64,000 nucleotides of DNA from Promethearchaeota archaeon (GCA_016839705.1 JAEOTR010000062.1:1-64000); one strand, 5' to 3'; positions 23,922 to 36,935 are shown, counted from the stretch's first letter. Made by a program: numbers and translations. The notes: a model not told the origin generated them from the sequence alone.

Positions 23922-24296
23922 ATGGCTCTATCAGATTTGCTTCAATTTCCTCATTTTTATGTAATGATAATTGCAGTGATCTTACTGACATTTTCAATTA
24001 TACTTGTAACAATACATAAACCCAAAAGGTGGTTTTATCTTCACATGTTTTGTTCCACCACCGGTACTCTGCTTACAATAGTTGGTATCATCCTTTTAAT
24101 GGGTTTAAATTTAACTATAACTCATGCAATTTTAGGTTTAATTGCCATTATTTTTTTAATAGGGGAATTATTTGTTGGGTATATTGCAAGGAAAAAAAAG
24201 GATAAAAGAATTCGAACATTTCATTTATGGGTAACTCGTATTATATACATTGTTGTGTTAATCGCAGTAATTTTAGGAATTATCAACTTTATTTAA
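23922..24296 (+). CDS. Four-helix cytochrome b561-like membrane protein
   Basis: Four TM helices, each with a His in a b561-like context (PHFYVM, WFYLH, THAILG, FHLWV). Confidence 0.65.
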   Translation: MALSDLLQFPHFYVMIIAVILLTFSIILVTIHKPKRWFYLHMFCSTTGTLLTIVGIILLMGLNLTITHAILGLIAIIFLIGELFVGYIARKKKDKRIRTFHLWVTRIIYIVVLIAVILGIINFI

Positions 24297-24348
24297 TCGT
24301 TAATTCGATTAGCAATAATTTAATTTTTTATATTAATTTCTTTTTATA

Positions 24349-26157
24349 ATGGAAGGAATGAACAATCAACTCCTGAAAATTGATTTATCAGCTGAAAGAA
24401 TTTCGGTTGATCAAATCGAAAATCAAATTCTTCAGTTTTATTTAGGGGGTAGAGGATTAGGTGTAAAATTATTTACTGATATCGTTCCAAAAAGTATTGA
24501 TCCTCTCTCAAAAGAAAATATGCTGATTTTCTCCATAGGCCCTATTACGGGTAGTACTGTCCCAACCAGTGGCAGATTTTCTTTAGTGACCAAATCTCCT
24601 TTAACTAATACAATTTTCCATTCAAATTCAGGAGGATATTGGGGACCCTATTTTAAAAAGTGTGGATATGACTGCCTAATAATTTCAAATAAATTGCGAG
24701 ATGAAGATAAAGGATACATTGTAATTGATAGGAATGAGAAAGTAGAAATTAAGGATGCTTCACATCTATGGGGATTAAAAACTTCAAGTTTAGTTGAAAA
24801 AATTAGGGAATCAGAAGGGAAAAATTCTCAAGTTTTATGTATCGGCCCAGCAGGAGAAAATTTAGTAAAATTTTCTTCAATAATGAACCAAGCACATAGA
24901 GCCTTTGGTCGCGGGGGTGTTGGTGCTGTAATGGGATCGAAAAACCTTAAGGCAATCGTCGTTAAAAATGGGAATAAAAAATTCCCGATAAAAGATAAAG
25001 AGCATATTAGAAGGCTCAATGTAGTAGCATTAGATAAAATCAGAGTTGTGCCCACAACTTCTCAAGGATTAGCAATGTTTGGGACTTCCGCGTTAGTAAA
25101 AGTAATAAATCTTTTCGGAATGCTTCCGGTAAGAAATTTTCAATCAGCCTTTACTGATTCAAATAGAATAGATTTGGTCAGTGGAGAAAAATTGAGAGAT
25201 ACTTATTTAGTAAGCAATGAAGGATGTTATAATTGTATAATAAAGTGCGGTAGATTGACAAGCACAGGAGAAATGAGCGGAAAAGGTCCTGAATATGAAT
25301 CATTATGGGCATTAGGACCATTGATAGGAATATTTAACTTAAAAGAAATAACTCACGCAAATTATTTATGTAATGATTACGGACTCGATACAATCTCTAC
25401 AGGGGGAACAATAGCATGTGCAATGGAACTTCAGAAAAATAGCATTATAAGTGATCCCAACCTCGAATTTGGGAAAGATGAGATTCTATACAATATTATT
25501 GAAAAAATAGCTTTAAAGGACGGAATTGGTGAAGAACTTGCAGAAGGCTCTTTAAGATTCTCAAGAAAATATGATGCTCTGAATTATGCAATGCAAGTTA
25601 AAGGAATGGAAATTCCGGCTTATGACCCTCGAGGTGCTTTTGGTCATGCTTTAAATTACGCTGTGAGTTCCCGAGGCGCATGTCATTTAACAGGATTTTT
25701 AGCTGCTTTAGAGATATTAGGTGCACCAAAACTCGTTGATAGATTTGCTGTTAATGGTAAATCCGATCTCTTATTTTTAAAGCAAAATCAAAGTGCTGTA
25801 GAAGATTCTCTTATTGTATGCAAATTTGTAGGTTATGCTCTGGGATTCGAATTTCAGGCTAGATTTTTAAGTTCTGTTCTAAATAAGGAAATTACAAGTA
25901 AAGATCTAATCACTATAGGAGAAAGAATTTATAATTTAGAACGCTTATTTAACCTTAGAGAGGGATTCTCAAAAGCGGATGACACATTGCCAACTAGATT
26001 TTTAGAAACTCCACTAATAGAAGGACCTTCAAAAGGAAAAATCGTTCCACTTAAACGTCTTTTACAAGATTATTACAATGTAAGGCAATGGGATGAAAGT
26101 GGCAATCCTACTGAAGAATTACTTGAAAGGTTATCTATTAAAAGATTAGTAAAATAA
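24349..26157 (+). CDS. aor: Aldehyde:ferredoxin oxidoreductase (W/Mo-pterin AOR family)
   Basis: LGGRGLG, KSPLT, IGPAGEN, GRGGVGAVMGSKNLKA, CxxCxxxC, GPEYE, GLDTIS and YDPRG motifs. Confidence 0.93.
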   Translation: MEGMNNQLLKIDLSAERISVDQIENQILQFYLGGRGLGVKLFTDIVPKSIDPLSKENMLIFSIGPITGSTVPTSGRFSLVTKSPLTNTIFHSNSGGYWGPYFKKCGYDCLIISNKLRDEDKGYIVIDRNEKVEIKDASHLWGLKTSSLVEKIRESEGKNSQVLCIGPAGENLVKFSSIMNQAHRAFGRGGVGAVMGSKNLKAIVVKNGNKKFPIKDKEHIRRLNVVALDKIRVVPTTSQGLAMFGTSALVKVINLFGMLPVRNFQSAFTDSNRIDLVSGEKLRDTYLVSNEGCYNCIIKCGRLTSTGEMSGKGPEYESLWALGPLIGIFNLKEITHANYLCNDYGLDTISTGGTIACAMELQKNSIISDPNLEFGKDEILYNIIEKIALKDGIGEELAEGSLRFSRKYDALNYAMQVKGMEIPAYDPRGAFGHALNYAVSSRGACHLTGFLAALEILGAPKLVDRFAVNGKSDLLFLKQNQSAVEDSLIVCKFVGYALGFEFQARFLSSVLNKEITSKDLITIGERIYNLERLFNLREGFSKADDTLPTRFLETPLIEGPSKGKIVPLKRLLQDYYNVRQWDESGNPTEELLERLSIKRLVK

Positions 26158-26196
26158 TAATAATTAAAAGTTAATAAAATCTTAACGAGAAAAGTA

Positions 26197-35266: not shown

Positions 35267-35370
35267 GTTAATTTTCCCATTTTAATAACTATAAATTGTA
35301 AATCAATTTTATTTGATATCAATGACAATAATAGCCCTTGATGGCATATTAATAATAAGATTATTTCCAT

Positions 35371-35390
35371 AAGAACCTTATCAGGTTCTT
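35371..35390. promoter_or_regulatory. Perfect inverted repeat between the kinase and GH78 genes (operator or RNA hairpin)
   Basis: AAGAACCT-TATC-AGGTTCTT. Confidence 0.35.
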
Positions 35391-35408
35391 CATGATTAAT
35401 GGCTTTTA

Positions 35409-36935
35409 TTACTCTTTCACACGCATCCAATTATTTTCCCTTTCCTCTTCGTTGATATTTGATAAATAAAAATTGTATGCATCATCCCACTTATCATTAT
35501 CCATTGGGGTATATTCAATAATCTGAAAAGAATTTCTAACTATACGTCTTAAATCTTTTATATTATTAACCTCACCTAATGCTAGAGCCTGGGTTAGGAT
35601 ATTCCCTATTGCCGTAGCTTCTGAAGGTCCTGCTAAAACGGGAATATTTAATATATTAGCGGTAAATTGATTTAATAAATTATTTTGGCTACCACCCCCA
35701 ATAATATGTAAAATTTCTATTTTGTTCCCTATTAATTCTTCCAATTGCTCAAAAATCTCTTTATATTTGAAGGCAAGATTCTCAAAGATTGTCCTTGAAA
35801 TTTGTCCAATTGTTTCGGGTGGGGTTTGGTTATGAATTTCGCATTGTTCCTTAATGCTATCAATCATATTAGGGGGATTAAAAAAGATTTTTTCATCAAT
35901 GTCAATGAAATTCTGAAATTGCTGAGAAGCTTCTGCTTCTAACTCTATTTTATCCCAAGTTAAATTGGAATCATTTTTATCCCATTGTTTTTTACATTCC
36001 TGAATTAACCAGAGACCCGTCATACCCCTCGAAAATCTTGTTGTAAAATGTAATCCCACCTCATTAGTAAAATTATATTCCAATACTTTTTCGTTAATTA
36101 ATGGTTCATTCAATTCAACTCCTAATAGAGCCCAAGTACCTGAGCTGAGATATGCCCATTTTCCGGGATTGTATTTATCCATATCAACAGGAACAGCAGC
36201 CACAGCTGAACCCGTGTCATGAGTTAGCGGAAGACTTATTTTAGTTTCATGGCTTAATCCCGTTTCCTCAGCAATATGATCCTGGATAGCTCCTAACACA
36301 GTACCTGGTTGAATTATTTCTGGGAACATATTTGGGTCAAAACCAAGTTTCCTAATTACATCAAAAGCCCAATTTTTTTCAATGGGATTATACAATTGTG
36401 AAGTACTTGCTTCTGAAGATTCGCAAATCTTTTTTCCAGAAAGTAAAAAGTTAAAATAATCTGGTAGCATTAGTAGAGTTTTTGTCATTGAAAGTCGAGG
36501 AGAATTATTATGGAGCATTGAAAAGAGTTGAACACTAGTATTAATCTGTACTACCATGTTCCCAGTTTGATTGAATATTTCCTTTTTTGGGATGACTTTG
36601 AAAAGCTTTTCAAGCATTCCGTCAGTTCTCTGATCTCGATAGTGGTAAACCGGTTCTATTAATTCATCATTTTCATCGAGTAACACAAAATCAACACCCC
36701 AGGTGTCGATACCAATAGAATCTAGATCAGAGCCATATTTTTTAACATAAATAATTAGACTCTTTTTCATTTTGTGGAATAATCTCAGGATGTCCCAGTA
36801 AAGAGAATTCTTAACTCTCACTCCTTTATTAATGAACCTGTAAATCGCATCAAGTTTTAATATTTTATCTTCTAATATTCCTACTATCGCTCTTCCTGAG
36901 CTTGCTCCCAAATCAAAAGCTAAAATCCTAAGCAA
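35409..36935 (-). CDS. rhaB: FGGY sugar kinase, rhamnulokinase/fuculokinase (RhaB-like)
   Basis: AFDLGASSGR, IDTWGVD, YRDQRT, HDTGSA, LSSGTW, FTNE and EATAIGN motifs. Confidence 0.88.
   Translation of the reverse strand: MLRILAFDLGASSGRAIVGILEDKILKLDAIYRFINKGVRVKNSLYWDILRLFHKMKKSLIIYVKKYGSDLDSIGIDTWGVDFVLLDENDELIEPVYHYRDQRTDGMLEKLFKVIPKKEIFNQTGNMVVQINTSVQLFSMLHNNSPRLSMTKTLLMLPDYFNFLLSGKKICESSEASTSQLYNPIEKNWAFDVIRKLGFDPNMFPEIIQPGTVLGAIQDHIAEETGLSHETKISLPLTHDTGSAVAAVPVDMDKYNPGKWAYLSSGTWALLGVELNEPLINEKVLEYNFTNEVGLHFTTRFSRGMTGLWLIQECKKQWDKNDSNLTWDKIELEAEASQQFQNFIDIDEKIFFNPPNMIDSIKEQCEIHNQTPPETIGQISRTIFENLAFKYKEIFEQLEELIGNKIEILHIIGGGSQNNLLNQFTANILNIPVLAGPSEATAIGNILTQALALGEVNNIKDLRRIVRNSFQIIEYTPMDNDKWDDAYNFYLSNINEEERENNWMRVKE

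Follow-up and report, generated by a model that had tools for sequence, protein, structure and literature searches.

A gene cluster at positions 23,922 to 36,935 of a 64,000-nucleotide stretch of DNA from a Promethearchaeota archaeon (GCA_016839705.1, JAEOTR010000062.1:1-64000; hereafter the window) raises the question of how an Asgard archaeon could degrade L-fucose and L-rhamnose. Escherichia coli processes both sugars as phosphates (FucP-FucI-FucK-FucU with FucA-FucO, and RhaA-RhaB-RhaD-RhaM-RhaT, with AldA), an isomerase, a 1-kinase and a class II aldolase leading to dihydroxyacetone phosphate (DHAP) and L-lactaldehyde. Sulfolobus on L-fucose and Haloferax on L-rhamnose follow oxidative routes that avoid sugar phosphates and consist of a sugar dehydrogenase, a lactonase, a dehydratase and an aldolase or hydrolase for the keto-deoxy acid, and to our knowledge archaeal deoxyhexose catabolism is known only in such oxidative, non-phosphorylative forms. 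The cluster in the window, predicted to act on the same sugars, contains none of the genes of those routes. We propose, with a probability of roughly 70%, that it is a cytoplasmic L-fucose/L-rhamnose utilization island in which a bacterial-style route is completed by an aldehyde:ferredoxin oxidoreductase (AOR) acting on lactaldehyde.

The cluster comprises nine open reading frames, located exactly where a preliminary description made from the sequence had placed them. Seven lie on the plus strand, encoding a small membrane protein, AOR, a FucA-like aldolase, the L-fucose isomerase FucI, two GH29 fucosidases and a URO-D/MtaA-fold protein, and the gaps between them (52, 39, 49, 43, 56 and 10 nt, in that order) are as tight as had been reported. 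The remaining two, a GH78 rhamnosidase and a RhaB/FucK-type kinase, lie on the minus strand, and bases 32,558-32,561 (TTAA) provide the stop shared by the convergent URO-D-like and GH78 genes, as had been claimed. Pfam and NCBIfam searches uphold the family assignments of the last eight of these genes in the preliminary description, the membrane protein being a separate case treated below.

FucI (26,858-28,672, plus strand) exceeds the cut-offs of both NF008220 (1088 bits, cut-off 775) and TIGR01089 (1053 bits, cut-off 850) and carries the Fucose_iso_N1, N2 and C domains. The kinase (35,409-36,935, minus strand) has FGGY_N and FGGY_C domains above their Pfam cut-offs, and its best match in the PDB is the FucK of Streptococcus pneumoniae (4C23, 324 bits), followed by E. 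coli RhaB (2CGJ, 263 bits). In a phylogenetic tree it groups with RhaB-like kinases whose genes directly adjoin FucI in Paenibacillus, Anaerolineae and Bacteroidota. Of the two E. coli kinases, RhaB is the nearer and FucK a distant outgroup; the tree gives no resolution of the kinase's relation to the bacterial clades. Kinases from FucI loci and from RhaA loci intermix in this tree. We assign the protein at the level of the RhaB/FucK group, as a proposed L-fuculose/L-rhamnulose 1-kinase.

The glycosidases point to the sugars on which these enzymes would act. The two GH29 alpha-L-fucosidases (28,716-30,077 and 30,134-31,513, both plus strand) score 311 and 323 bits against PF01120, above its cut-off, are 57% identical to each other and show full-length similarity to the Thermotoga maritima fucosidase 1HL8 (411 and 389 bits, respectively). 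The GH78 alpha-L-rhamnosidase (32,558-35,266, minus strand) matches five GH78 Pfam domains, the six-hairpin catalytic domain and the accessory domains among them, and aligns with the rhamnosidase 6I60 at 991 bits; it falls under the species-level equivalog cut-offs of NCBIfam. The closest enzymes to the GH29 and GH78 proteins are those of Thermotoga and Dictyoglomus. All three have hydrophilic N-termini, with a catalytic or Ig domain beginning as early as residues 2-4. They are therefore likely to be cytoplasmic and unlikely to carry a signal peptide, in agreement with the preliminary description; these features were read without a dedicated predictor.

The step proposed to set the cluster apart would be encoded by two adjacent genes. 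AOR (24,349-26,157, plus strand; AFOR_N 251 bits, AFOR_C 419 bits) belongs to the canonical AOR clade and aligns end to end with Pyrococcus furiosus AOR (1AOR, 539 bits), keeping the CxxCxxxC [4Fe-4S] motif with its distal fourth Cys as well as Glu313 and His448. The P. furiosus enzyme is linked to aldehydes derived from amino acids; its Fe-S and catalytic residues are the same, whereas the gene here is locked to that of a sugar-phosphate aldolase. This neighbor, a class II (Zn) aldolase of 203 residues (26,197-26,808, plus strand; Aldolase_II 105 bits), has FucA of Thermus thermophilus (2FK5) as its best PDB match. Alignment with E. coli FucA shows no substitution at the Zn ligands H92, H94 and H155, the catalytic E73 or the phosphate-site residues N29 and S71 (E. 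coli numbering), and all six are kept with respect to the T. thermophilus enzyme as well. All named sequences among the best 120 homologues of AOR (55-87% identity) are from Asgard archaea, and the same is true of the best 120 homologues of the aldolase (61-95% identity), which we class by homology as a separate Asgard subfamily. We propose that the aldolase cleaves L-fuculose-1-phosphate and L-rhamnulose-1-phosphate to DHAP and L-lactaldehyde and, from the pairing of the genes, that L-lactaldehyde is the substrate of AOR.

No transporter, mutarotase or rhamnose isomerase lies inside the cluster, as the preliminary description had noted. In what follows, G000 denotes the genome of this window, which is 93% complete, and other G and L numbers denote genomes and loci of relatives. 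The rhamnose isomerase missing from the locus is encoded on another contig, where a single RhaA gene stands alone (G000:C88:73782-75029, 606 bits), completing the rhamnose branch. G000 contains one FucI, one RhaA, one RhaB-like kinase, one GH78, three GH29 and one clustered aldolase, together with 12 AOR-family genes; none of the other AOR paralogues exceeds 36% identity to the one in the cluster. With one kinase, one clustered aldolase and a lone RhaA, it is probable that the same kinase and aldolase serve both sugars. Precedents exist for both: mixed specificity occurs within the RhaB/FucK group (PMC3245297), and one aldolase has been proposed to serve both sugars in Clostridium phytofermentans (PMC3557285).

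The arrangement recurs in other Asgard genomes. We compared 41 relatives, and separately 151 genomes from across the phylum (52 genera); the resulting co-occurrence counts are descriptive and carry no statistical test, as the genomes are kin. Among the 41 relatives, FucI is found in 9, and the aldolase orthologue, the kinase and RhaA in 10 each, largely in the same genomes; the aldolase is present in 9/9 genomes with FucI and in 9 of the 10 with RhaA. AOR lies directly upstream of the aldolase in all ten relatives possessing the orthologue, and likewise in L011, L012, L015 and L028. This pair stands beside FucI in G000, G017 and L011-L015, beside RhaA in G008, and together with both in L028; near-identical aldolases neighbor RhaA in one genome and FucI in others. 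In the phylum-wide sample, 7/7 genomes with FucI or RhaA have the aldolase and an orthologue with 60% identity or more turns up in only one genome besides these, and a spacing of about 1.8 kb from RhaA to the aldolase recurs in G104, G110, G122 and G150. The only relative with RhaA and without this aldolase, G030, has a RhaA-aldolase-kinase operon (L155:6772-10129) with a different, E. coli-FucA-like short aldolase, beside which no AOR was detected.

Gene order in individual loci agrees with this picture, and the synteny across Asgard relatives that the preliminary description had proposed to check proved to hold in independent assemblies, which places the cluster beyond chance. The closest counterpart, L011, has the order MBL, b561-like, AOR, aldolase, FucI, GH29, GH29, URO-D-like, GH78 (reversed), GH51 and kinase (reversed), with identities to the window of 58-95% for the cluster genes. 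In G017, of the same genus, the order is kinase, MFS_2 transporter, carboxylesterase, AOR, aldolase, FucI, GH29 and GH78; G008, of the same genus and without FucI, has kinase, MFS_2, carboxylesterase, two GH78 genes and RhaA-AOR-aldolase. The MFS_2 (GPH-type) transporter and the carboxylesterase lie between the kinase and the rest in both (L091:8785-11749 in G017, L152:4410-7353 in G008). In L028, from a Promethearchaeota MAG, RhaA, kinase, AOR and aldolase are separated from FucI by the genes of LarA and a FAD/Fe-S dehydrogenase, which run on the opposite strand. The b561-like gene is not conserved, and relatives add an MFS_2 transporter. Two further arrangements were observed. In L015 (11858-14821), from an uncultured archaeon, an insertion of two amidase genes separates FucI from GH29, and in the closed same-order genome G033 only fragments of FucI with internal stops are found (G033:C1:3401502-3402198; L009/L010). 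G033 still has RhaA and the AOR-aldolase pair, and its FucI looks like a case of gene decay.

The analysis shows gene identities, intact catalytic motifs, synteny, co-occurrence and phylogenetic placement. From these we infer the scheme as a whole, including the substrate of every enzyme, the action of kinase and aldolase on both sugars, the use of lactaldehyde by AOR and an extension from lactate to pyruvate. Fucosylated or rhamnosylated oligosaccharides or glycosides would be imported, relatives carrying an MFS_2/GPH symporter in the locus, and the two GH29 enzymes and GH78 would trim the sugars intracellularly. FucI from the locus and RhaA from contig C88 would isomerize them to L-fuculose and L-rhamnulose, the single RhaB-family kinase would phosphorylate both ketoses at C1, and the single clustered class II aldolase would split both 1-phosphates into DHAP and L-lactaldehyde. 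The gene identities thus support the isomerase-kinase-aldolase route put forward in the preliminary description, with its activities as predicted ones. The adjacent AOR would then oxidize L-lactaldehyde to L-lactate with reduction of ferredoxin, a step that would replace the bacterial enzymes AldA, RhaW and FucO, which use NAD, and would suit an H2-producing fermenter. Lactate may finally be converted to pyruvate by LarA (425 bits, cut-off 460) and a GlcD-like FAD/Fe-S D-lactate dehydrogenase, encoded side by side on contig C62 (G000:C62:8218-11231) and 66% identical to their orthologues between the aldolase and FucI in L028 (6793-9815).

Several observations weigh against this reading. The kinase scores 449 bits against the rhamnulokinase equivalog TIGR02627, under its cut-off of 528. 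The aldolase lies under every FucA equivalog cut-off (TIGR01086, 30/400 bits; NF040649, 75/250; NF005302, 36/264), its best NCBIfam model being NF006413, named simply aldolase (190 bits, cut-off 203), and the Tyr region found at the C-terminus of E. coli FucA is missing from it. A class II aldolase/epimerase paralogue on contig C71 (G000:C71:17069-17746; L240:7069-7746) is a better match to E. coli FucA (35% identity) than the clustered aldolase. Neither a transporter nor a mutarotase was found for G000, whose MFS_2 paralogues elsewhere are only 24-30% identical to the locus transporter of relatives. The genes for LarA and the D-lactate dehydrogenase provide a contextual hint only, since in G000 they sit on a different contig and in L028 they run opposite to the pathway genes. 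Finally, kin are not independent, and the co-occurrence counts overstate the support. As for the C71 paralogue, it overlaps the gene of an unrelated sugar-phosphate isomerase-like TIM-barrel protein and is found genus-wide irrespective of FucI and RhaA; we therefore read it as a housekeeping enzyme and rejected it as the main candidate for the pathway aldolase.

The alternative that survives best accepts the route as far as lactaldehyde and differs on what follows: lactaldehyde would be reduced to 1,2-propanediol by an iron-containing alcohol dehydrogenase (Fe-ADH), or oxidized by some other enzyme, and AOR would be a general aldehyde scavenger. G000 offers the means, as its 11 other AOR paralogues and five FucO-like Fe-ADHs (27-31% identity; FucO itself was not detected) could handle lactaldehyde, which also tells against our proposal, and canonical AORs such as that of P. 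furiosus are known for their broad substrate range. Two of the Fe-ADH genes adjoin AOR paralogues, on C42 and C3. Against these points, the adjacency of AOR and aldolase is invariant in the relatives examined and extends to a fucose locus of Anaerolineales, the AOR orthologue group tracks FucI and RhaA and is not universal, and no Fe-ADH occurs in any locus examined. We consider this alternative unlikely. The Fe-ADH and AOR gene pairs of G000 (C42:22564-25557 and C3:8705-11779) are likely separate modules for alcohol and aldehyde oxidation.

More improbable still is that the aldolase-AOR pair serves another ketose-1-phosphate and that its link to fucose and rhamnose is secondary. Possible substrates would be D-ribulose-1-phosphate, formed from D-arabinose through promiscuity of FucI and FucK and yielding glycolaldehyde, or the 5-deoxy- and methylthio-ribulose-1-phosphates of the DHAP shunt. 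The failure of the aldolase to reach any FucA cut-off would agree with this, as would its weak matches to ribulose-1-phosphate aldolase and MtnB models, and E. coli FucI, FucK and FucA are known to process D-arabinose as well. However, two GH29 genes and one GH78 gene share the locus, the pair is absent from nearly all genomes without FucI or RhaA, whereas a salvage function should be widespread, and the C71 paralogue is the better candidate for such a housekeeping role.

The host of the contig is an Asgard archaeon, as the preliminary description had supposed, and of Loki type. The contig carries, at window positions 120-989, a gene for a gelsolin-repeat protein (Pfam 29.5 bits, cut-off 21), a eukaryote-like signature, and the RhaA gene on C88 adjoins that of a Ras-family GTPase. 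The names given to the closest FucI loci are Promethearchaeota, Promethearchaeia, Helarchaeota and Hodarchaeum, and the FucI sequences of two same-order GTDB kin, G029 and G037, also occur unchanged on NCBI contigs named Promethearchaeota. IorA and IorB, which flank the cluster, have syntenic counterparts of 87% and 81% identity in the Promethearchaeota metagenome-assembled genome (MAG) DZ3M.28 (L011). The weakest alternative, that a bacterial or chimeric contig carrying the cluster was assigned by mistake to an Asgard MAG, could draw on an estimated genome contamination of 6.8%, on the bacterial type of several cluster genes and on a related FucI contig labeled Deferrimicrobium, but we rejected it as having a negligible chance of being right, contamination or chimerism being very unlikely because the contig is 102 kb long with a GC content of 31.7% against 31.4% for the genome, carries the gelsolin-repeat gene, has its cluster and flanks (IorAB, MBL) colinear and conserved in the Promethearchaeota MAG, and shares the cluster with many independent Asgard assemblies, one of them a contig of 672 kb.

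The first 64 kb of this contig, which make up the window, also differ from L011 next to the cluster. Between IorAB and the MBL gene flanking the cluster lies an array of PEMT/ICMT-family membrane methyltransferase genes with an extra MBL gene (18,615-21,615). In L011 IorAB directly abut the flanking MBL gene, which suggests that the array was inserted or expanded in the lineage of the window. Searches for tRNAs and Rfam families found none in the 64-kb window.

If the host is archaeal, where did the pathway come from? The phylogenies of FucI and the kinase that had been suggested as checks bear on this. In a tree of 85 FucI sequences, all 18 Asgard sequences and one contig labeled Deferrimicrobium fall on one side of a branch with an SH-like approximate likelihood ratio test (SH-aLRT) value of 95. 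When the tree is rooted with E. coli FucI, the Asgard group is a clade (99) among bacterial lineages, with a weak backbone (55-79). FucI occurs in only 1/24 other genomes of the genus. The single Asgard clade and the patchy distribution fit one acquisition from bacteria followed by spread and loss within the Asgard archaea. The kinase, for its part, falls among RhaB-like kinases of the FucI-adjacent type. By homology, FucI, the kinase, GH29, GH78 and the URO-D-like protein are of bacterial type, and the aldolase-AOR pair falls in Asgard clades. The preliminary description had seen the locus as bacterial in origin and rewired with archaeal parts. This view is supported by the position of the FucI clade among bacteria, the bacterial-type kinase and glycosidases and the Asgard AOR; as a refinement, the aldolase also belongs to the archaeal parts. 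Within the Asgard FucI clade, the contig labeled Deferrimicrobium (L020, DATKTP010000132; 8.6 kb, binned as Candidatus Deferrimicrobium) carries a FucI sister to a Helarchaeota FucI, a placement that could reflect mis-binning or secondary transfer.

The URO-D/MtaA-fold gene (31,524-32,561, plus strand) opens a second line of enquiry. Its product scores 81 bits against PF01208, and its AlphaFold2 model (pLDDT 84) is most similar to UROD and to MtaA of Methanosarcina mazei (TM 0.63-0.68). It lies under the cut-offs of HemE (TIGR01464, 20/303 bits) and MtaA (NF040654, 31.5/400 bits); a sequence search of the PDB gave no significant match, and the fold search returned only the generic UROD/MtaA fold. 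The family alignment has an invariant H242-x-C244, resembling the H-x-C of MtaA, together with H263 (in HP) and H326-E327 (in SHE). The gene is kept beside GH29 and FucI in many Asgard loci (69-89% identity), and of the 3301 matches to this large and highly conserved family many are bacterial homologues with 55-65% identity. We examined its bacterial context in 64 bacterial-like metagenome loci (L169-L237), by a metagenome scan with clustering of open reading frames. An L-rhamnose-mutarotase-family (RhaM) gene lies directly downstream in 20 of them, and further neighbors are RhaT-family permeases (17/64), SSF transporters (8/64), LacI-family regulators (6/64), B12-binding proteins (6/64) and ABC ATPases (5/64), with a second URO-D paralogue being frequent. 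These neighbors in Asgard and bacterial loci tie the family to deoxyhexose use in both archaea and bacteria. One homologue (P0056) is labeled Deferrimicrobium.

A bolder reading starts from this gene. The URO-D-like protein might be a new deoxyhexose enzyme, a candidate Zn-dependent and possibly corrinoid-linked O-demethylase of methyl-fucose and methyl-rhamnose; with a dedicated lactaldehyde AOR and a dual-specificity aldolase, the island would then constitute a new anaerobic pathway. As a hypothesis, O-demethylation would make released methylated fucose and rhamnose catabolizable. G000 encodes six B12-binding homologues. We regard this reading as tentative, possible though doubtful.

The first gene of the cluster (23,922-24,296, plus strand) is a doubtful member of the system. 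It encodes a membrane protein with four hydrophobic segments, possibly a short cytochrome b561-like protein, as it was called in the preliminary description. This label agrees with a language-model feature similarity of 0.90-0.91 to small bacterial b561 clusters, whereas both Pfam scores lie under their cut-offs (PF03188, 21 bits against 23; DUF4079, 23 against 31). Five His residues are present as possible haem ligands. The gene adjoins AOR only in L011 (68% identity) and in no other relative's locus examined, and we rejected it as a fixed partner of AOR.

How does the proposed island compare with known systems? E. coli FucI and RhaA are clear orthologues of the proteins here. The E. coli FucK is only a distant relative of the locus kinase, and in place of the separate E. 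coli enzymes both branches here seem to depend on a single kinase of RhaB type and a single short aldolase. Searches of the 93%-complete G000 detected no RhaM, FucU, FucP, RhaD, RhaT or FucO, and lactaldehyde is proposed to pass to a ferredoxin-dependent AOR. The fucose operon of S. pneumoniae (FucK 4C23, FucA 4C24/4C25) provides, with its RhaB-like fuculokinase, the best structural relative of the kinase. In C. phytofermentans a single Methanocaldococcus jannaschii-like aldolase has been proposed for both fuculose-phosphate and rhamnulose-phosphate (PMC3557285). Both systems differ in converting lactaldehyde to propanediol, in Clostridium within a microcompartment, whereas the locus here has no microcompartment, propanediol dehydratase or Fe-ADH genes.

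The closest analogy in design is RhaEW (YuxG) of Chloroflexus and Bacillus, in which a class II L-rhamnulose-1-phosphate aldolase is fused to an L-lactaldehyde dehydrogenase, physically coupling cleavage to aldehyde oxidation and giving DHAP and L-lactate; lactate dehydrogenases are co-regulated in some genomes (PMC3870299). The dehydrogenase part of RhaEW is an NAD-dependent SDR domain, whereas here two separate genes are involved and the oxidation would fall to a ferredoxin-using AOR of the predicted tungsten/molybdopterin type. A role for AOR near this metabolism has a parallel in Desulfofundulus, where 1,2-propanediol is oxidized to lactaldehyde and lactate and the oxidation of alcohols has been assigned to Adh1 together with a neighboring AOR (PMC13541210). 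A bacterial counterpart of the gene pair is found in Anaerolineales bacterium BB38 (L077:10001-17050, JADGEO010000015), whose operon-like cluster reads FucI-FucU-kinase-AOR-aldolase. It differs in having a FucU mutarotase, in identities of only 47% for AOR and 44% for the aldolase, and in an aldolase that branches outside all Asgard aldolases. This pair strengthens the functional link between aldolase, AOR and fucose and weakens the idea of a purely archaeal pairing. Our literature searches turned up no paper that connects Asgard archaea to fucose isomerase, fuculose or rhamnulokinase, and no publication describing the aldolase-AOR design or this pathway. What is new here is a predicted bacterial phosphorylative route in an archaeon, with a putative ferredoxin-dependent aldehyde step and a kinase and an aldolase that would be shared by two sugars.

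These findings suggest that Loki-type Asgard archaea took up a bacterial route and attached their own aldolase-AOR pair to it. The C3 aldehyde half of each sugar would yield reduced ferredoxin, from which a syntroph could form H2 or formate, in contrast with the NADH cost of propanediol formation or the NADH yield of other routes. One AOR clade gains a concrete candidate for its physiological substrate, and under the scheme a short aldolase should accept two substrates that are C4 epimers. The locus also draws attention to an uncharacterized family with the URO-D fold that is linked to deoxyhexose use in archaea and bacteria alike. For the organisms themselves, it adds algal and plant glycans containing fucose and rhamnose to the likely diet of sediment Asgard archaea.

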